Virus record (IMG/VR): IMGVR_UViG_3300031953_000049
Span: 1 to 40,392 of that record
DNA length: 40,392 nt
DNA from: a virus
Taxonomy: Duplodnaviria > Caudoviricetes
Strand: one strand, 5' to 3'
Made by a program: the position numbers and the translations under genes. Shown here one piece after another: positions 1,739-40,392 of the stretch (the first letter of the stretch is position 1; each line of letters begins with the position of its first letter). The notes beneath the pieces were generated by a model that ran no database searches, was not told where the DNA came from, and saw only the letters and a list, made by a program, of their open reading frames with translations.

Positions 1739-2689
1739 GTGAATGAGCATATACCCCTTCTGAAGGTTGCCAAGCCTTCCTGGATATATCCCATCTATGT
1801 GCCGACGTACAATCGCCCCGGTGCTGCACTCTTCCTGAACACCATGAACGACGCTCCAGATAGTGTGAAGCGCAAGATTCGCATCGTGGTTCGCAAGGAG
1901 CAGGCTGATGCCTACCTGAAGTCCTATCCATGGGCTAAGCAGGTTCTCGTGAAGCTTCCAGGGTTAGGGGCAGCACGCATGAGAGCTGTCCGCCATGCAC
2001 GATCCCAGGGCTTCACACGCATCCTGCAGATAGACGATGACATCCGCTCGGTGTCCCTGCTGGAGCGCCTGCCACGTGAAGGCAAGACAGACCATACTCG
2101 CAGGCACAGCTTCGGGGTGAGTGGTCGTAGTCGTGTTGACAACTACGTTCGATCCCTAGCTGTGGCCTGTCAGATGGCCGAGAGCGCGTTTGATGCAGAA
2201 CCACTCGCAGCACTAGGGCATCCTCGCAACGGTCTCTTCAGCGGAGACGTAGACACCACAGTGGGAGCAACCTTTGACAAGGGGGGATTCCCGTGTGCAG
2301 TAATCTTCTACGATCTGGACCGGCTCACCTTGGAGGAGTTGCCACCCGAGTTTCACATGCACGGTGAAGACCTAGGCACGACGCTGCACTTGCTATCGTC
2401 TGGGCAGAAGTGGTTCACGCTGCCAGCTGTGGCACAGGATGCCGATACTGGCATAGAGACCACCATCCCGATTGATCCGCAGAGTCCTACGGCGCGTCAG
2501 CCAGACTTGGACAATGCCTTCAAGGTCTACCCAGAGATCGCACCGTACCTGAGAGCCACCTTGCGGAACAAGGCTGGAGGAATCATGAAGATAGGTGTAC
2601 ACTGGACTCAGTGGTATGCCTTCTCCGGTGCACAGCCCAGAGAAGTATCCATGCATGACATCGTCACACAGATCAAGGAGAAGCAATAA
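1739..2689 (+). CDS. GT-A fold DNA glycosyltransferase (T2/T6 beta-glucosyl-HMC-alpha-glucosyltransferase / TAGT / GREB1-like)
   Basis: IYVPTYNR, IRIVVRKEQADAY, GLGAAR, DxD motif in QIDDDI, late ED motif in HGEDLG; adjacent to the hydroxymethylase-like gene. Confidence 0.8.
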   Translation: MNEHIPLLKVAKPSWIYPIYVPTYNRPGAALFLNTMNDAPDSVKRKIRIVVRKEQADAYLKSYPWAKQVLVKLPGLGAARMRAVRHARSQGFTRILQIDDDIRSVSLLERLPREGKTDHTRRHSFGVSGRSRVDNYVRSLAVACQMAESAFDAEPLAALGHPRNGLFSGDVDTTVGATFDKGGFPCAVIFYDLDRLTLEELPPEFHMHGEDLGTTLHLLSSGQKWFTLPAVAQDADTGIETTIPIDPQSPTARQPDLDNAFKVYPEIAPYLRATLRNKAGGIMKIGVHWTQWYAFSGAQPREVSMHDIVTQIKEKQ

Positions 2690-3282
2690 TGTTCATCGCG
2701 TTTGAAGGCCCGGACAAGACGGGCAAGTCCACCAGCGCTACTAACCTCGCTCACGATCACATTGCTCTATACAATGCGACCAAGAACATGCACGCACGAC
2801 AGCAAGAGGAAGTTAGCCTATATCCCGATTACATCCCAATTACCTATGATCGTATTGACTGGCTAAGTCACATGGTCTACCGCTTGGCTATGCCCGACCG
2901 AGAATGGTATGACGATCGTCCTCGCACGGTGTTCGCCATGCCTGACACACATCTCGTTGTGAAGATACATGCAGCTGAGACAGTGCGTGGCATCAAGGAT
3001 GAACTGTATGATGCAGGAAGCCCTCTTGCAGCTGTCAACGACATGTACTACTACCAGACGCTCTTTCTCATCGAGATGAACAAGAGAACTGACTATTCAC
3101 TGTTCCGCACCATCTCTCTGGTAGAGGTGCACAGTGACATCGATAACAAGGTGTTCGCACAGAGATGGCTCAAGTTAGACAGTCCTATCATAGATGAGAC
3201 TGAAGTCGATGCAGCGTTCTACACAGATGACTATCTGATGACGGTACTCCGTGAAGAAGAACGACAGCGGATCACAGTCTGA
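2689..3282 (+). CDS. Thymidylate-kinase-like P-loop nucleotide kinase
   Basis: N-terminal FIAFEGPDKTGKST Walker A and DR..LS..VY motif (YDRIDWLSHMVY). Confidence 0.8.
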   Translation: MFIAFEGPDKTGKSTSATNLAHDHIALYNATKNMHARQQEEVSLYPDYIPITYDRIDWLSHMVYRLAMPDREWYDDRPRTVFAMPDTHLVVKIHAAETVRGIKDELYDAGSPLAAVNDMYYYQTLFLIEMNKRTDYSLFRTISLVEVHSDIDNKVFAQRWLKLDSPIIDETEVDAAFYTDDYLMTVLREEERQRITV

Positions 3283-3985
3283 CCACGGCAAGCATCTCCA
3301 CCTTGACCACCTGTTCAAGGTGGGAGTGCTGCTAGACCGTTCTCAGAACAAGAAGCTATCCCAGGCCACACGCATGGAGGCCGCGCAAGAACTCCTTCGT
3401 TACCGTGACGAGGGAATCATCATACAGACTAGTAAGGAGGTGAGCAAGGTGGCTAAGAAAAGCACACGCGCTCACGAAGAACCTGATCCAGTGTTCGGTG
3501 GCAGGGGTATTATCTTCGCGGTGATTGATGACCGTGAGGAGATGCGCGAAGGTCGGGTAACAACCATCGACGTTCTAACCGAAGGCATTGAATCGGCCCT
3601 AGACGCAGGGCACGAGACCAGCGAAGACATCGCACGGTATCTGACCACCAGTGCGTTCCAGCACATAACCGACAAGCGCGTGCGATTCAACAGCGTGCTC
3701 AAAGCTGGTGACATCGTAGGTGCTCAGATTGTGCGCAAGCTGCACAACGCATACAACGATCTAGCCGTCACAGCGGAAGAAGAGGAAGACCCTAAGCAGA
3801 AGGCTCTTCTCCGCTCCGAAGCTACTGGATTCGCAGAGGCGCTGATGGTAGTGCTAAGCCCTTTCAGCAGCGAAGACCAGGAAGACCCTAGGCTGGTATC
3901 CTGGGAAGAAATAGACCGTATGACAGCCACCTTCGAGAAGGAGCAACGGTTCGTTATCAAGGAGAGAAAAGGAACACCACAATGA
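3251..3985 (+). CDS. Hypothetical protein
   Basis: 244-aa ORF inside the operon; stop overlaps the next ATG. Confidence 0.7.
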   Translation: MKKNDSGSQSDHGKHLHLDHLFKVGVLLDRSQNKKLSQATRMEAAQELLRYRDEGIIIQTSKEVSKVAKKSTRAHEEPDPVFGGRGIIFAVIDDREEMREGRVTTIDVLTEGIESALDAGHETSEDIARYLTTSAFQHITDKRVRFNSVLKAGDIVGAQIVRKLHNAYNDLAVTAEEEEDPKQKALLRSEATGFAEALMVVLSPFSSEDQEDPRLVSWEEIDRMTATFEKEQRFVIKERKGTPQ

Positions 3986-4497
3986 GCGAACGAGATGACA
4001 TCACAGAGCAGGCGTATCACCTCCCACCAGCCCTGTTCAGTCGCGAAGAAGCTGATGCCCTTGGAAAGGCATTTGACAAGCGCTTCCCACCTAAAGAAGA
4101 CATCGAGGAGTATCACACGATGCAGGAGCTGGTTCACAACACAGCTACAGGCTTCAACCTCTTGCTGAAGATGCAGCACAGCTTGGAGGAGAAGTGGGGT
4201 CGTGACGTAGACGTCAATGATCCTGAAGCTGTGAGCAGGCACATTCGGGACACCATCCTGTGTACCACTGATGAGCTCCATGAGGTGCTGGCTGAGGTCA
4301 ACTGGAAGCCATGGAAGGATTCACGCGGCATCAAGGATGTGGATAAGTACCGTGAGGAGATGGCCGACGTGCTGCACTTCGTCCTCTCGCTGTACCTAGC
4401 AGCAGGTGTCAGCGGTCAGGAGATCGTCACTGACTACATGGCTAAGCATCAAGAGAACCTAGCGCGAACACGTTCGGCTGAGTACAAGGCAAGCTGA
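3982..4497 (+). CDS. All-alpha NTP pyrophosphatase (MazG / dimeric dUTPase / T4 gp56 dCTPase-like)
   Basis: DELHEVL, WKPWK, EEMADVLHF and Y..KH.EN..R motifs. Confidence 0.85.
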   Translation: MSERDDITEQAYHLPPALFSREEADALGKAFDKRFPPKEDIEEYHTMQELVHNTATGFNLLLKMQHSLEEKWGRDVDVNDPEAVSRHIRDTILCTTDELHEVLAEVNWKPWKDSRGIKDVDKYREEMADVLHFVLSLYLAAGVSGQEIVTDYMAKHQENLARTRSAEYKAS

Positions 4498-4751
4498 TGG
4501 ACGTGCAACTAGAGGTCCGTGAAGCTAATCGCAGACTCAAGCGTTCAGCCGATCGCATGGCTATCATCGCAGCAGCTAAGGTCAACGGGATGACGCCTAA
4601 AGAGTATGCAGATAAGCTTGATAGAGAACGTCTAGAAAAGCTTAGGGCCATGCCGTCCGCTGCTGAGCAGCTGGGAACCATCTACCGTCAGATCAATGAC
4701 GCGTTCGTGGAGTTCGCAGAGAACTTCGCACGTGGCTGGAACGGCCGATGA
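4497..4751 (+). CDS. Hypothetical protein
   Basis: 84-aa ORF translationally coupled at both ends (TGATG, ATGA). Confidence 0.7.
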   Translation: MDVQLEVREANRRLKRSADRMAIIAAAKVNGMTPKEYADKLDRERLEKLRAMPSAAEQLGTIYRQINDAFVEFAENFARGWNGR

Positions 4752-5212
4752 CACGTTCATCGTGGGACACGGTCTGGGCAGATGTTGCTCGGGCTGTGTC
4801 CCGTAGGTCGTCCTGCGATCGTGCTCAGGTAGGTGCTGTCATTGTCAAGAACAACCGAGTGGTCTCTACAGGCTACAACGGTCCTGCCAGTGGGTATCCG
4901 GCAGACACTAGCCTGGGATGCCAGAACTGGTGTCTGAGAGCAGCTGGTGGCGTCCCAGACATGGTTAGTGGTTACGGATACGCCTGCCCGAGCGTCCATG
5001 CCGAGGCGAATGCTCTGCTGCATGCCAGTAGGACTGATGTTGAAGGTGCCACAATCTATGTGACTCACGCACCATGCGCCGATTGTGCCAAGCTGGTTTC
5101 CGCCTCAGGTGTGGCCCGACTAATTATCCTTCAACCCATCGAGTCGCACAGACCCGATCCTACCCGATATCTAGAGGGGTGTGGTATCGAGATAATAACA
5201 CTTGCGTCCTGA
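4748..5212 (+). CDS. dCMP deaminase
   Basis: RSSC..AQVGAVIV, STGYNG, HAEANAL and PCADC zinc-binding motifs. Confidence 0.92.
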   Translation: MTRSSWDTVWADVARAVSRRSSCDRAQVGAVIVKNNRVVSTGYNGPASGYPADTSLGCQNWCLRAAGGVPDMVSGYGYACPSVHAEANALLHASRTDVEGATIYVTHAPCADCAKLVSASGVARLIILQPIESHRPDPTRYLEGCGIEIITLAS

Positions 5213-5266: not shown

Positions 5267-5968
5267 ATGAAGATCACAAAGATGCTAGCAGGCGCTGTCA
5301 CAGCTCTGCTTGTAGGAGGAGGGCTAGCGTTCGCCACAGTGCTTCCAGCTAGCGCTACAGTCAACGAGGACTGTGTCCCATCAGAAGCCTGGACTGAGGT
5401 AGTCACCCCCGAGGTGCCTGCCGTAGACGAGGTTCCAGCTGTGGATGCAGTGTACGAAACAGTCATCATCAAAGAAGCTGGCTGGCAGCGCTACTCATTC
5501 ACAGGCAAGTGGAAGAGCGATGATGCTCCAGAATTCCCGGGAGATCAGTGGCAGGCTAACGTCGCCGGCGATCCTCATGGTGTCGGAGTTGAAGGCGCAT
5601 ACTTCCGCAGCCACGAGAACTCGGGGAACGTTGACTGGTTCTATCTTGAAGCCACACCAGCTGAGACCGAGCAGCGCCTTGTGTCTGAAGCTGTCCCGGC
5701 AATCCCAGGGCAGGAAGCTATCCCAGCAGTGACCATCGAGCATGAAGCGGTCGTCTGTGAAGAAGAGCCTGTAGTAGTGGTTCCTCCGGTGGATACCACA
5801 CCTCCTGTCCAGATTGATGATCCAGTGAAGGCTGTGCCAGTAGCGGCGACGCTGGCATACACTGGAAGCGATGACAAGCAGGGCGTTCTGCTCGGAGGCC
5901 TTGCGTCACTGCTGATCGGTGTCAGTGCTGTAGTCGTATCTGCTATTCGACGCCGTATGCTGGTCTAG
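5267..5968 (+). CDS. Secreted, sortase-anchored (LAXTG) cell-wall protein
   Basis: N-terminal signal peptide (MKITK, hydrophobic core, PASA); C-terminal LAYTG, then a hydrophobic helix and RRR tail. Confidence 0.8.
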   Translation: MKITKMLAGAVTALLVGGGLAFATVLPASATVNEDCVPSEAWTEVVTPEVPAVDEVPAVDAVYETVIIKEAGWQRYSFTGKWKSDDAPEFPGDQWQANVAGDPHGVGVEGAYFRSHENSGNVDWFYLEATPAETEQRLVSEAVPAIPGQEAIPAVTIEHEAVVCEEEPVVVVPPVDTTPPVQIDDPVKAVPVAATLAYTGSDDKQGVLLGGLASLLIGVSAVVVSAIRRRMLV

Positions 5969-7987: not shown

Positions 7988-9856
7988 ATGCAACTACTTA
8001 TCAGCGATGATCTAGCTGAGGTACAGGCTTATCTAGCCCAGTCCAAGGCACCACTCATCTTTGACATCGAGACCACAGCACTGACTGTCGGCAAGGGTCA
8101 GATTCTCTGTGTAGCCTTCGCTCCCTACGATCGTGACGATGTGATGGTCTGGTGGCCTAGCAGTCCGGCCGAACTCGGCAAGCTCCGCATCCGTAATGGC
8201 GTAGCCCACAACTCTCCGTTTGACAAGAGGTGGCTCCTTAGCTATGGTGCTCAGGTGCGAATCACGTGGGACACGATGTTCATGGCTCACCTGCTTGATG
8301 AGAATCATCCGGTAGGACTGAAGGACCTAGGGCAACGGCTCCTCGGCTATACCGACTGGGCTGACGACAACGTGAAGAACCTTGGTGAAGAGTTCGGCCA
8401 GATGTGGGAAGATCGCAAGAGCATCTCACGCAAGGCGTGGGAAGCCAGCAAGCAACGCGTCAGCATCTATGCAGCCAAGGACGGCCACATCACGCGGGAG
8501 CTTCTAAAGTGGCAGCGCCGACACGTCAAGAAGAATCTCAAGCCCTTCGAGAATCCAGTCAGGGTGATGCGCGAAGTGATGCTGCCTGCCAGCCCTGCAC
8601 TCCTGCAGATGGAAGACACGTGGCTACCAGTACGACTAGGTCTGGTGGCTAAGACGCAAGCCAAGGTTGAAGACCAGATAGCAGCCATCGAGAACAAGCT
8701 TGACTCCAGCATCCCAGACATCGAAGACTGGCCGGAGTGGTTGAAGAAGACGAAACCTAAGTGGGGAAACACTAACTGGACTAAGTGGTGGCTCTACGTC
8801 TATCAAGGAGCTCTCTGTCCACGTCGCACCAAGCCGACAAAGACATGGCCCGAAGGAAACCCTGGGATGTCCCAAGAGGACCTAGCCAAGATTGACCATC
8901 CGGCTGCACGCCTGCTGTCCCAGCGCAGCACGCTCTACAAGCAGCTAACAGGGTTTCTCAATCCCATCATGGATCGCACGGTGGATGGCCGCATACCAAC
9001 AAGCTTCAGTCTCACCGGGACTGTTACAGGGAGACTCAGCAGTAGTAGCCCTAGCAAGGAGACACCGGGGCTGAACTCGCAGCAGATACCCCGGGACAGG
9101 GCAACCAGAAATCTGTTCGGTGAACCCGGTAAGGCGTGGATTGAGGTTGACTTCAGCCAGCTGGAGCTTCGTGTGGCCGCTGTGATGGCTAACGAGCCAA
9201 CCATGCTGGAACTCTTTAGAAACGATGAGGACATCCACACCTACATAGCCCAGAGGCTGGTTCGTGGTAGTGAGGTCACCAAGCAGCACAGGACTCTCGC
9301 TAAGGGCGTCAACTTCGGCTTCCTCTACGGTATGATGGCTAAACACTTCGCCGACTATGTGCGAGAGAGCTACGGCGTCATCATTACTCGCAAGGAAGCT
9401 GAGGTGTTCCGTGATGAGTACTTCACCACCTTCGGTGGACTGCCCGAGTGGTATCGCAAGCAGCGTCGTGAAGCTATTGAGTTCGGTGGCGTGCACAACG
9501 AGTTCGGCAGGTTCAGGCACTTGCCTCGGGTGTACCACGAAGACTTCTGGGTACAGGAGAACGCATTCAGGCAGGCTATCAACTCGCCTGTGCAGTCTAC
9601 AGGTAGCGACTTCATGCTGATCAGTTTAGGTCGGCTCGCAACTGACTTGCGTCTCCCAGAGCTGGGAGCTAAGCTGGTCACCACTGTCCATGACTCCGTG
9701 TGCTTGACTGCCCCATACAAGACAGCGCGTAGAGTAGGACGAATCGTAAAAGAGACAATGGAGCAAGCTGATGACACCTTGGATAGAAAGTTCTTTCTCA
9801 AAGCAGACGTCACGATCTCACGATGCTGGGGAGGTGAACCCCTTGCCGAATTCTAA
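7988..9856 (+). CDS. DNA polymerase, family A (3'-5' exonuclease plus polymerase domains)
   Basis: Exo I FDIETT, TGRLSS, motif A DFSQLELR, motif B RTLAKGVNFGFLYG, motif C VHDS; ATG 7988 follows AGGAG, whereas the longer ORF-track start lies inside the tRNA. Confidence 0.95.
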   Translation: MQLLISDDLAEVQAYLAQSKAPLIFDIETTALTVGKGQILCVAFAPYDRDDVMVWWPSSPAELGKLRIRNGVAHNSPFDKRWLLSYGAQVRITWDTMFMAHLLDENHPVGLKDLGQRLLGYTDWADDNVKNLGEEFGQMWEDRKSISRKAWEASKQRVSIYAAKDGHITRELLKWQRRHVKKNLKPFENPVRVMREVMLPASPALLQMEDTWLPVRLGLVAKTQAKVEDQIAAIENKLDSSIPDIEDWPEWLKKTKPKWGNTNWTKWWLYVYQGALCPRRTKPTKTWPEGNPGMSQEDLAKIDHPAARLLSQRSTLYKQLTGFLNPIMDRTVDGRIPTSFSLTGTVTGRLSSSSPSKETPGLNSQQIPRDRATRNLFGEPGKAWIEVDFSQLELRVAAVMANEPTMLELFRNDEDIHTYIAQRLVRGSEVTKQHRTLAKGVNFGFLYGMMAKHFADYVRESYGVIITRKEAEVFRDEYFTTFGGLPEWYRKQRREAIEFGGVHNEFGRFRHLPRVYHEDFWVQENAFRQAINSPVQSTGSDFMLISLGRLATDLRLPELGAKLVTTVHDSVCLTAPYKTARRVGRIVKETMEQADDTLDRKFFLKADVTISRCWGGEPLAEF

Positions 9857-10001
9857 GAGATGTGGTCACACGTACTACCTTGAAGGATCTACGGTTCCTG
9901 ACAGGATCTTGCAGTGCTGGAAACGTAATGGTACTCACGACATCCATCGCACCCTGTGCATGTCGTGGGACTCATCAGAAACATGGAGGATAGTCAAGTG
10001 A
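9843..10001 (+). CDS. Small Cys/His-containing hypothetical protein
   Basis: TTG start 8 nt after GGAGG; fills the gap between polymerase and nuclease; stop overlaps the next GTG. Confidence 0.5.
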   Translation: MPNSKRCGHTYYLEGSTVPDRILQCWKRNGTHDIHRTLCMSWDSSETWRIVK

Positions 10002-11167
10002 CTGCCAAGGCACTACCATCCACAGGCAAGAAGCCCGGGAGCAAGGCGTGGCACGGAGCTCGTGGCACGTGGCCCACAACTGAGGATGGCAAGCTGATCA
10101 TCACTCAGAGCATGGTGAGCGGCTTCGTAGCCTGTCCCAGGGAAACTTACTACGGCATCATCCTAGGACTCCGTCCACGTCTTCAGAGCAAGCCTCTGAC
10201 TCGTGGCACGTGGATTCATAGCCTGCTGGAGGAACGTGCTCAGGGTGGCAACTGGAAGAAGCTGCACAAGGAGTTGACAGCCAAGGCTGAAGCTGAAACG
10301 TTCGAAGAGGAGACAGCTGGCCTTGCTCTCGAGTGCTACAACATTGTCCTCAGTTACGACTGGGTCCACCGTAATGACGTCCTGACTCCCATTGCAGTAG
10401 AGCTGACGGTAGAGCGTCCCATGTTCAAAGGGAAGGTGCTGTACCGTGGCCGCATTGACATCATCTGGTTGGATGAAGAGGGCAACGTGTGGCTCGGCGA
10501 CCACAAGACTCACGCCACACTGCCGGACTGGAGATACCGTGAACTCGCCTTCCAGCATTACTCCTATCTCTGGGCAGTGGCTAACTCTCCTCAGTACAAG
10601 GCGCTCCGGTACAAGGGCAAGCCTCTACCACAGCCGAAGGGCTTCATCTATGACTACTGCAGAACCAGCGCCATTCACACGCCTACGCTGACACAGAAGG
10701 GCAAGATAAGCCGAGTGCTGAAGCCCAGTGGCACGACGCTCCCAGTGTTCAAGGAGTGGCTCATCAAGAACAACATGGCAACCATTATCAACAGGAAGTT
10801 CCTGCTGGCTATCGAAGACGCTGGTGAGCGTGCCTATGTAGAAGAGTTCCTGGTGGCCCTTATGCACCGAGACTACTCCACGGAGTTTAGGCGTGACCGA
10901 CTTACCTTCAGCCCAGAACAGGCTGAACGACAGCGCAAGGCGTTCGTCACGAGTTCTCGTCGCCTGCTACAGTACAAGTGGGACGACCCAGATTGTGTGG
11001 AACGGAACACCAGTGCGTGCTCGGGCTACATGTGCAACTACAAGGACCTCACAGTAGCTGACTTGATGCACGGCAACTCGGACATTGAACAGCGCACACG
11101 CTACGTCACAACACGTGACCCACTTGACTACTACCCAAATCAGAGCAAGAAGAAGGGCAAGAAATGA
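9998..11167 (+). CDS. Cas4/RecB-like PD-(D/E)xK exonuclease
   Basis: CPRETYY, RGTWIHSLLE, E...GRIDII...DHKT, Q..SY, C-terminal Cys cluster; GTG 9998 behind GGAGGA. Confidence 0.88.
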   Translation: MTAKALPSTGKKPGSKAWHGARGTWPTTEDGKLIITQSMVSGFVACPRETYYGIILGLRPRLQSKPLTRGTWIHSLLEERAQGGNWKKLHKELTAKAEAETFEEETAGLALECYNIVLSYDWVHRNDVLTPIAVELTVERPMFKGKVLYRGRIDIIWLDEEGNVWLGDHKTHATLPDWRYRELAFQHYSYLWAVANSPQYKALRYKGKPLPQPKGFIYDYCRTSAIHTPTLTQKGKISRVLKPSGTTLPVFKEWLIKNNMATIINRKFLLAIEDAGERAYVEEFLVALMHRDYSTEFRRDRLTFSPEQAERQRKAFVTSSRRLLQYKWDDPDCVERNTSACSGYMCNYKDLTVADLMHGNSDIEQRTRYVTTRDPLDYYPNQSKKKGKK

Positions 11168-36444: not shown

Positions 36445-36722
36445 CCTTCAAACGACGCTGCGAAAATGAGCAGCCACATGCAGCCCACGACTACGACTAC
36501 CACTGGAAGAAGGACGACCTGTTCTACCTTCCCAGCTATGTCGCTCGGCACCTGCCGGACGAGTGGGACGTCACCTACACCTGCAAGGGCATTGAAGAAC
36601 CTACCTGCACACTCTGTGGAGAACTGCTAGCAGAAGACACCCTGATGATCGGGCGACGAGCTGTGTTCTGCCCTAATGACGAGTGCGAGAAGTTCGCTCA
36701 GTCCTTCTGGGTAGAACGGTGA
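36441..36722 (+). CDS. Zinc-ribbon hypothetical protein
   Basis: ATGA coupling; CTLCG..CPNDEC. Confidence 0.7.
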   Translation: MTFKRRCENEQPHAAHDYDYHWKKDDLFYLPSYVARHLPDEWDVTYTCKGIEEPTCTLCGELLAEDTLMIGRRAVFCPNDECEKFAQSFWVER

Positions 36723-37057
36723 ATGGGGATAGACGCCACATCGGGAAAGTGTGTGTCGCGCTGCTGCATGAAGGGCATGCCAACGAGATCATCCACGATA
36801 GTTCTCATGTGGCCTTAGTTGAAGCTGTGAAGCACCTGCAGAACCAAGAGTTCTGGCAGCTGAAGACCCAGTCCAAGCATGAAGGCAAGAACGCCTCCAC
36901 CGATACACAGCTGGCTATCTGCAAGATAGCCCTGCCAGCCTTGGAGCTTGCTGTGGCTGCCCTTGAGACTGACGACTATGCAGCAGCCATAACTCACATC
37001 ACGCTAGCTATCGAGACAGACGGCACAGTGCCAGCTAAGACAAGGAGAAACAAGTGA
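36719..37057 (+). CDS. Hypothetical protein
   Basis: GTGA overlap with the upstream stop; helical 112-aa protein. Confidence 0.65.
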   Translation: MNGDRRHIGKVCVALLHEGHANEIIHDSSHVALVEAVKHLQNQEFWQLKTQSKHEGKNASTDTQLAICKIALPALELAVAALETDDYAAAITHITLAIETDGTVPAKTRRNK

Positions 37058-37185
37058 GCAAGCAGCATAAGAAGCTGAAGTGCGTGTGCAAGGGAAAGGA
37101 ACTCAGAGTCTATCTGGGAACTGACCACCAGAAACATATTTATAGGTGTCCTCTAGCACTGGGCAACCAGAAGGGTGACCGATGA
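37054..37185 (+). CDS. Small basic CxC/H/C protein (43 aa, not in ORF track)
   Basis: AAGGAG RBS, GTGA and ATGA overlaps; MSKQHKKLKCVCKGKELRVYLGTDHQKHIYRCPLALGNQKGDR. Confidence 0.65.
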   Translation: MSKQHKKLKCVCKGKELRVYLGTDHQKHIYRCPLALGNQKGDR

Positions 37186-38045
37186 AGACCACCGAGGACG
37201 TCATCAAATTCGCTCGTGCTAGGCACCGAGTCTGGGAGGGCAAGCCTGTCAAGAGCCGAGTTCTTACAACGAGGAAGTTCACCAACGTGTTCCGCGTGCT
37301 GGACAGGGGCAGCCAGTATCTACTGGAGCGAATGAACCTGCACGATGATCCTCTAGACCGTCTGATGCTGTCCTACTTCTACCGTCAGGTGAACAGGCCA
37401 GACACCATGGATGCCATCATCGAGAGGAACGATGGCTACGTCCCTGAGGCGTCCGACATCCTGGACCCGAAGTGGTATGACCGCGTCGTGGCACCAGTGG
37501 CAGCAGAACGTCCTGGAGCCTTTCTCAGTGGTGCCTACATGATACTCGTCAGCCCCGGAGATAAGCGGCCGACAGTCCAGAAGATGCAGTCAACCTTCCC
37601 AGCAGCAGGGCCACACCTAGCCCGGATCGCTGCCTTGCCTGACCTTGCCAGCAGGGTCAAAGACCTGCAGAAAGTGGACGGACTAGGGCCATTCATGGCG
37701 ATGCAGATCGCGACGGATATGGGGTACTGCGAAGGCGAGGAAGACCAAGAAAACACGTTCGTACTCGCTGGCCCTGGGAGCAGGATGGGCGTCGGGTTCC
37801 TCATCGGCAAGCCCTACGCCTCTCCTTCGGAGGCGCACGATGTTATCAGCAACTTCCCGGTGGAAGAGCTGCCACCACTGCCTGAAAGCAACGGAAGACC
37901 AGCCAGCTGGATGGACATTCAGAACGTCTTCTGCGAGTTCAGTAAGTACGTTCGTATCAGCGGTCGTGGTGTCAATCCGACTGCCAAGCCTTATGTCACC
38001 AAGGGGACGTTTCCCCTGCACATTCCTTCCCATTTCCAGCAGTAA
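37182..38045 (+). CDS. aGPT-Pplase1-family (HhH-glycosylase-like helical) DNA base-hypermodification protein
   Basis: R..V, L..RKFTNVFRVLDRGSQY, YR..NR.DT, SGAYM, GLGPFMAMQIATD, AGPGS..G, DIQNVFCEFSKY motifs. Confidence 0.85.
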   Translation: MKTTEDVIKFARARHRVWEGKPVKSRVLTTRKFTNVFRVLDRGSQYLLERMNLHDDPLDRLMLSYFYRQVNRPDTMDAIIERNDGYVPEASDILDPKWYDRVVAPVAAERPGAFLSGAYMILVSPGDKRPTVQKMQSTFPAAGPHLARIAALPDLASRVKDLQKVDGLGPFMAMQIATDMGYCEGEEDQENTFVLAGPGSRMGVGFLIGKPYASPSEAHDVISNFPVEELPPLPESNGRPASWMDIQNVFCEFSKYVRISGRGVNPTAKPYVTKGTFPLHIPSHFQQ

Positions 38046-38058
38046 TTTCACAAGAAAC

Positions 38059-38200
38059 CTGAGTAGGGCTACGCTCCGATTTTCGTAGAAAATAATCTGC
38101 GTAACTGTGAGTGTGGCCCTACTCCTATTTCTACAGAAACTTTCTGCGATAATCTGAGTAGGAATTGCACTCCTATTTCTACAGAAAATAAACCTGAAAA
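38059..38200. repeat. Degenerate tandem repeat with 48-bp period
   Basis: ACTCCTATTTCTACAGAAA at 38121 and 38169; degenerate GCTCCGATTTTCGTAGAAA at 38073. Confidence 0.85.
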
Positions 38201-40265: not shown

Positions 40266-40392
40266 CCACCTCATAAGGAGTCCACCTCATGTCAACTGCA
40301 ACTGAAAAGAAGATCGAACTGATCAACCAGCTTCTCGCCAAGGCCGAGAAGACCACGCCGGAAGAGGCTGAAGCCCTCACCGAGCACGCTGA
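40266..40392. repeat. 127-bp terminal direct repeat, right copy
   Basis: Identical to bases 1-127. Confidence 0.95.

Follow-up and report, generated by a model that had tools for sequence, protein, structure and literature searches.

The aGPT-Pplase family has been described in four hypermodifying phages, phiW-14, SP10, ViI and M6, and was not found in SPO1, T4 or lambda in the same survey (PMC5889632). On the DNA polymer, hydroxymethyluracil (hmU) becomes either thymine or a hypermodified base, the transferases being the enzymes of clade 2 (PF18724); with borohydride a clade-2 enzyme yields thymidine, and the clade-1 protein M6 gp55 could be omitted (PMC8989533, Lee 2022). Structures of clade 2 show a Cys plus a metal-binding Glu-Thr pair (PMC13458397, PMC11472151). 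The DNA of ViI and M6 is reported to hold thymidine plus one modified base only, and SP10, in which clade 1 (PF18723) is fused to a kinase, has only clade 1 and makes glutamylthymine (PMC5889632), which suggests a transfer activity of clade 1. It should be noted that the labels of M6 gp51 and gp55 are swapped relative to Pfam in the table of Lee 2018 (PMC5889632). In our literature search, which covered mostly open-access main texts, we found no report of a clade-1 activity or of clade 1 together with a hydroxymethylcytosine (hmC) pathway.

Here we analysed a window of 40,392 bases, by which we mean the whole stretch of viral DNA. Its ends have 127 bases in common (bases 1–127 recur at 40266–40392), which makes it a circular genome with a terminal repeat. 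The genome is siphovirus-like, and because nearly all matches of its capsid, hydroxymethylase and glycosyltransferase (GT) are to Microbacterium cluster-EA phages, we infer a cluster-EA-like phage of Microbacterium. Compared with 19 other EA genomes its GC content (∼55%) and CpG ratio (0.77 versus 0.88–1.0) are lower; TTAA and TCGA are under-represented. Between 38225 and 40274 a TGATTACATCAAG-like motif of 24–33 bases is repeated ahead of small early genes and followed by repeated AAGGAG ribosome sites, and these repeats likely represent a phage promoter or operator. The product of 5267–5968 has a signal-peptide-like N-terminus, LAYTG and a hydrophobic, basic C-terminus; it has no family match and resembles a sortase-anchored surface protein.

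The gene under study lies on the plus strand at 37182–38045, directly downstream of a plus-strand phrog_4362 gene (36683–37057, from the ORF list and a phrog match). As the initial annotation had stated, it is intact, an open frame of 287 codons, and the four motifs are in place: FTNVFRVLDR at residues 33–42, GLGPFMAMQIATD at 167–179, AGPG at 196–199 and DIQNVFCEFSKY at 245–256. The distance of about 3 kb to the modification cluster was also correct, since with the 127 shared bases the gap to the hydroxymethylase across the circular join comes to 3,063 bases. Membership in the aGPT-Pplase1 family was borne out by the profile search, in which PF18723 (HMUDK_hel) reached 106 bits (cut-off 25, E 2.9e-30) over residues 5–260. 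The protein aligns with M6 gp55 (24% over 305 columns, E 7e-15) and has no match to the clade-2 enzyme M6 gp51 (E 0.021). Against the 86%-identical copy in locus L075 we calculated a dN/dS of 0.096, by which the gene is under purifying selection. Directly 3' of its stop codon, at 38046–38190, there are a 44-base imperfect inverted repeat and 19-base direct repeats.

Across the join, plus-strand genes make up a cytosine-type pathway. The earlier reading that the sole TS-fold enzyme has the dCMP-type Asp holds: the product of 843–1598 is the only TS-profile match in the 27 ORFs scanned, and a dUMP hydroxymethylase, with Asn at the 177 position, is missing from the window, which has Asp180 instead. 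The best solved match of this product is the T4 dCMP hydroxymethylase (E 2e-26); its C148 and D180 align with C148 and D179 of the T4 enzyme, and its D172 corresponds to ThyA D169. We also considered a 5-hydroxy-dCMP synthase, in which D169N would be expected (PMC13326640); the retained D172 argues against it. Because this presumed hydroxymethylase resembles T4 gp42, carries Asp in place of Asn at position 177 and lacks D169N, hmC synthesis can be inferred on good grounds, and the phage likely builds its DNA with hmC. There follow a GT-A glycosyltransferase of the TAGT family PF20691 (1739–2689), which according to its profile matches likely glycosylates hmC in DNA; a P-loop kinase (2689–3282), by profile and sequence comparison likely a dNMP (hm-dCMP) kinase and not an HMUDK; a conserved EA gene inside the cluster (3251–3985, phrog_4086, also found by EA comparison); an all-alpha dUTPase_2/MazG-like pyrophosphatase (3982–4497, profile matches) with a presumed dCTPase/dUTPase role; and a profile-matched dCMP deaminase (4748–5212), an accessory gene that the EA comparison finds missing in most relatives. 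Hydroxymethylase, dNMP kinase, pyrophosphatase, dCMP deaminase and DNA glycosyltransferase are what the window has in common with the T-even glucosyl-hmC pathway (gp42, gp1, gp56, cd, alpha/beta-gt), but a GT-A (TAGT) enzyme takes the place of T4's own and T4 is without PF18723. With the clade-1 systems (M6 gp55, ViI gp160, phiW-14 gp72 and the C-terminal domain of SP10 gp186) it shares the invariant protein motifs and a gene near a TS-fold hydroxymethylase. In contrast to these systems the hydroxymethylase is of the dCMP type, the protein falls in a separate long-stem clade, and the partners are lacking: a six-frame search of the window with the clade-2 profile gave nothing, a 5-hmdU DNA kinase had no Pfam match in the 27 ORFs and a best E of 0.097 in a six-frame profile search, and the window has no PLP or rSAM hypermodification gene. 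Judged by gene content, the window carries a PF18723 member but is not a thymidine-hypermodification system.

The structure model of the 37182–38045 protein (pLDDT 92) is alpha-helical and HhH-glycosylase-like. Its best structural match is Mag1 (Z 9.6), and the top 23 rows are HhH glycosylases, PaMx11 gp46 and DUF2419. With the clade-2 transferase PaMx11 gp46 it gives Z 9.3 (rmsd 4.6, 231 aligned), a middling value which ties with the glycosylases and is within reach of helical proteins by common arrangement. A PDB sequence search returned nothing below E 0.2, and Foldseek no match at E ≤ 0.001. In a weak profile alignment of the family to clade 2 (probability 9.9%, E 0.003) the invariant Cys251, present in 125/125 rows with a residue there, falls on the clade-2 catalytic Cys. 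The protein would thus share the HhH fold and an equivalent Cys with the PF18724 transferases (M6 gp51, ViI gp247, PaMx11 gp46), but it has no Pfam match to PF18724, the Glu-Thr before the Cys is Gln247-Asn248, and a substrate-priming kinase is lacking. By motif reading, the places that would correspond to the catalytic Lys and Asp of HhH-GPD glycosylases are occupied by the invariant Phe171 and Gly197. Eight positions (7, 76, 103, 111, 115, 134, 159 and 285) emerged as candidate specificity switches between EA and hmU-type copies; none of them lies at the conserved pocket motifs, and no position of the active site changes cleanly between the two. Among the longer forms of the family, one kinase fusion (P0121) was found and no oxidoreductase fusion seen, a weak negative with 7,997 candidates scored.

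Microbacterium phage records comprise 191 with the hydroxymethylase, 174 with a TAGT enzyme and 42 with the PF18723 gene, the last being cluster-EA orthologues at 55–70% identity in the same genome region. Relative to these phages the window adds the dCMP deaminase and has the lower GC content. Their copies are annotated by domain only (for example Morrigan gp53, 'aGPT-Pplase1 domain-containing protein'), a Microbacterium phage survey names only 'thymidylate synthase' (PMC7302621), and our literature search found no nucleoside data for EA phages. All 25 EA hydroxymethylases carry the motif RSMDAV(F/W)GYRAD. The EA copies of the PF18723 protein form one clade (100/100) on a stem of 2.2 substitutions, among actinophage copies from phages with N-type (Asn) hydroxymethylases. 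The nearest outside copies, at 25–40% identity, belong to actinophage hmU clusters (Brevibacterium phage LuckyBarnes, Glutamicibacter phage Montesquieu and metagenomic kin), which unlike the window have the Asn (dUMP-type) hydroxymethylase. LuckyBarnes (L155:8801–12816) resembles the window in having clade 1 with TAGT enzymes; together with L027, L038 and L042, which have the same Asn-type set, kinase and clade 2 not being detected, it is a candidate for base-J-like glycosyl-hmU in phages.

Around family members a TS gene was found within 156 of 231 loci (redundant between scans): 124 are of the M6-gp58-type with Asn, 5 ThyA-type, 18 Asp and 9 unreadable, while 75 loci have none in range. The 18 Asp loci are 16 from EA phages plus L056 and L303; the Asn-type loci go on with clade 2, PLP and kinase genes, or with glycosyltransferases. 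Profiles PF18751, PF18748 and PF18724 found nothing in nine complete or near-complete N-type records (G001, G003, G004, G006, G008, G010, G012, G016 and W01), and therefore the gene would need only a hydroxymethyl base, some of these kinase and clade-2 absences being soft because the ADDT (clade-2) profile has limited sensitivity (it missed Montesquieu's annotated clade-2 gene) and PF18747 was left out. SP82G, Goe16, T4 and Knocker lack the gene. Hence the constant partner of the PF18723 gene is the hydroxymethylase.

Genomic evidence that the gene concerns cytosine came from the relatives. A CA/TG excess was the first sign and led to an analysis of sequence contexts. As an index we used the synonymous T/C logit in 5'-C[C/T]C of homologous core genes. 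In 13 genomes with the gene versus 7 without, this logit was 0.58 versus 1.56 on the coding strand (p 2.6e-5) and 0.56 versus 1.68 on the template strand (p 5.2e-5), the context having been picked out of 32 tests in these 20 genomes. The C_T and T_T contexts also differed on both strands, and T_T failed in new genomes; the C_G context did not differ, so that CpG deamination was dropped as a cause. Across 27 EA genomes the index runs from 0.32 to 1.15 with the gene (17 genomes) and from 1.17 to 1.82 without it (10 genomes), two groups kept apart by a thin margin (1.15 versus 1.17); the window, at 0.89, is the second highest among the gene-bearers. A prediction fixed in advance held in all six named genomes, Juicer (1.24), McGalleon (1.17) and Cheeto1 (1.49) for absence and YuuY (0.64), Juanyo (0.60) and WilliamStrong (0.50) for presence, with Juicer as the sole new lineage among them. 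The shift was seen in 19/19 genes tallied. On the core tree the state of the gene changes six times, and six independent pairs give a sign test with a median p of 0.03, at a threshold of 1.2 chosen after the values had been seen. Among real genes in 26 genomes the PF18723 gene alone separates the two index groups; a second perfect separator was rejected as an antisense shadow frame. Olihed, which has neither hydroxymethylase nor gene and was intended as an unmodified baseline, scored 0.35/1.26 over 13 genes. In conclusion, where EA genomes lack the PF18723 gene, synonymous sites move from CCC towards CTC on the coding and on the template strand.

Because the gene-less relatives have fewer CCC, the protein likely acts on those hmC that would escape the glycosyltransferase. 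Among the options raised in the initial annotation, that the family acts on hmC here is the one supported, by the tree and by the CCC footprint, and we consider it probable that the 37182–38045 protein acts on unglycosylated hmC in DNA, likely after replication. As to its product we tentatively propose 5-methylcytosine (5mC), with rather less than even confidence. Hm-dCMP would be made, phosphorylated and incorporated as in T4. The TAGT enzyme might then skip some adjacent hmC, as does T4 alpha-glucosyltransferase, which modifies one of two adjacent hmC (PMC13160076), so that bare hmC would remain chiefly in C runs. Cys251 would add to C6 and water would leave, giving an exocyclic methylene as in clade-2 enzymes. 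Addition of a hydride would then yield 5mC, in parallel with the conversion of hmU to T on the polymer. Cys-mediated hmC chemistry is known from methyltransferases, and NADH dependence has reportedly been seen for SP10; against 5mC, the protein has no cofactor-binding domain. Conversion to 5mC could hide free hmC from hmC-specific host defences, so that CCC would be lost where the gene is missing; Brig3, a glycosylase that acts in defence, removes hmC but leaves 5mC and C in place (PMC13160076). Applied to hmU, this chemistry would yield T, the sole unexplained product common to all four hmU phages. If the footprint were mutational, 5mC should raise, not lower, C-to-T at such sites.

It might also be possible, with a small probability in our estimate, that the protein is a transferase which puts an amine, amino acid or thiol onto the hmC methylene and gives an undescribed cytosine base, kinase-free here and kinase-primed in the Golden/Koji group. 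The clade-2 Cys is retained, SP10 and Nachito have clade 1 and a kinase with clade 2 not detected, a PF18751 kinase overlaps the gene in Golden, which has no GT, and the CCC footprint would follow just as well if bare hmC were capped. However, M6 and ViI have clade 1 and show no extra base, and since the window is without an HMUDK-type kinase the leaving group would be an unactivated hydroxide. The initial annotation had taken the family for the modifying enzyme and had raised a hybrid base as a possibility. However, the demonstrated transferases are clade 2 and M6 gp55 is dispensable (PMC8989533), and because of this a hybrid base is a minority outcome. The family assignment and the cytosine-type pathway of the initial annotation stand. 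A new hybrid base is possible but improbable; its chances are better in the Golden/Koji group, which has a base kinase in place of the GT.

In this group, Golden gp55 (L156:1353–1958) is the PF18751 base-kinase-family gene that overlaps the start of the PF18723 gene. Close copies occur in 13 records including Golden, which with the four of the Pikmin group make up, by arithmetic, the 17-record gap between hydroxymethylase and GT (checked directly for Golden, Koji and Pikmin). The best match of this kinase in the set compared is Knocker gp9, beside the terminase of a phage with a deazaguanine cluster, and its base-kinase role is therefore likely, not certain. Golden-type EA phages, having lost the GT, are candidates for a phosphomethyl-cytosine pathway. 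The Pikmin group has a diverged TAGT; Pikmin gp45 (L157:5642–6529), at the GT position, is an unannotated 295-aa gene with a weak TAGT match (E 0.004). Outside EA, L056 (G028, a complete genome of 40 kb) has a single TS with Asp, RSNDVWLGLPYD. The same phage carries both a clade-1 and a clade-2 gene, and its other relevant genes are a base kinase, a deaminase and one that is GT-like. L050 and L055 are its kin, the Asp motif being read, of these three, in L056 alone, and L303 has a similar TS near clade 1. The L056 type may be a second lineage that puts amino-acid-type groups on cytosine.

A role in removal or repair appears unlikely as well. The protein would strip formaldehyde from hmC to give C, or excise deaminated hmU opposite G and so lower C-to-T at CCC. 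The HhH-glycosylase-like fold fits such a role, DNA C5-methyltransferases are known to remove the hydroxymethyl group in a Cys-dependent reaction, the smaller number of CCC-to-CTC changes in gene-bearers agrees with a mutational reading, and homologues lie in predicted bacterial defence systems. Nevertheless, the HhH-GPD Lys and Asp appear to be replaced in our alignment reading, such a reaction in hmU phages would leave uracil or break their own genomes, and T is not rarer overall in genomes that have the gene. The homologues at L142:5788–11923 and L145:7842–11880 combine clade 1 with a ThyA-like TS in apparently bacterial contigs, with neighbours whose sequences read as TIR-like and nucleotide-modification-associated; these loci resemble predicted defence systems.

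As a helper, to which we give little credence, the protein would bind or flip hydroxymethyl bases for the GT or the kinase, with fuller glycosylation and no new base. Clade 1 is fused behind a region that reads as GT-B-like in L044 (837 aa, 8414–10927), L041 and L138 and is fused to base kinases in P0121 and SP10 gp186, and GT alleles co-vary with the gene. But a pocket of invariant Cys, Glu, Lys and Asp points to catalysis, the kinase domain of SP10 is active by itself (PMC8989533), and the gene is found alongside at least five GT states, one of them being the lack of a GT.

The footprint might instead stem from the glycosyltransferase alleles, the gene being an accessory that has been kept for a substrate not apparent from these data. 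Gene state changes only two to three times on the GT tree, against six on the core tree, so that the footprint may be due in part or entirely to the specificity of the GT, and about 149 of the 191 records thrive without the gene. The tree of the TS, which sits between GT and PF18723 gene in collinear relatives, shows seven changes, and the gene-less phages do not come together on the tree of any replication gene (five to eight changes). The few changes on the GT tree weaken independence, yet they tie the gene to the hmC-glycosylation step. The GT of L004 is sister to a gene-less clade, yet this partial genome carries the gene with an index of 0.81; in Golden and Koji, which have no GT, the index is 0.33 and 0.51; and the low dN/dS is a further point against this explanation, which we hold to be improbable.

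The two other options of the initial annotation fare worse. That the deaminase turns hm-dCMP into hm-dUMP, with modification of both pyrimidines and hmU as the substrate of the protein, is very unlikely: the deaminase does lie inside the window's cluster, but it occurs in 2/24 other EA genomes searched (2/20, then 0/4 further), and while both carriers have the PF18723 gene, 13/15 gene-bearing relatives are without it. No Microbacterium phage was among the best 60 of 1,649 records in the deaminase search, the footprint falls on cytosines, and T4 likewise pairs a dCMP deaminase with its hydroxymethylase and has no hmU in its DNA. That the protein works on DNA with the 2689–3282 kinase, a P-loop protein of the same cluster, can practically be dismissed, since this kinase is a core gene (20/20 EA genomes) present with or without the PF18723 gene, would supply the dNMP kinase that an hmC phage needs, has no similarity to M6 gp54, no HMUDK Pfam match (E 0.097 to the base-kinase profile) and no PDB sequence match, and stands beside a separate PF18751 kinase in Golden and Koji, while commercial 5-HMUDK was inactive on hmC-DNA (PMC6457204).

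The PF18723 gene is thus an already domain-annotated, conserved gene in a new biochemical context. If the conversion of hmC to 5mC were extended to the family, which we regard as doubtful though possible, clade-1 aGPT-Pplases would be polymer-level enzymes that turn hydroxymethyl- into methylpyrimidines: hmU into T in phiW-14, SP10, ViI and M6, hmC into 5mC without a methyltransferase in EA phages, and in the Golden/Koji group the products might be phosphomethyl- or amino-acid-type cytosines. Among the conserved genes of the thymidine-hypermodification set, clade 1 alone lacks an assigned activity in the literature surveyed, and the polymer-level step from hmU to T has no assigned enzyme. Both become testable because EA phages are small, cultured and available as natural sister pairs with and without the gene (Mandalorian/Eleri, Golden/ChickenKing and Pikmin/Schubert), and the CCC footprint points to where changes should be sought. 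Epigenetic mapping would also gain a tool from an enzyme that turns hmC in DNA into 5mC, into C or into a tagged base.
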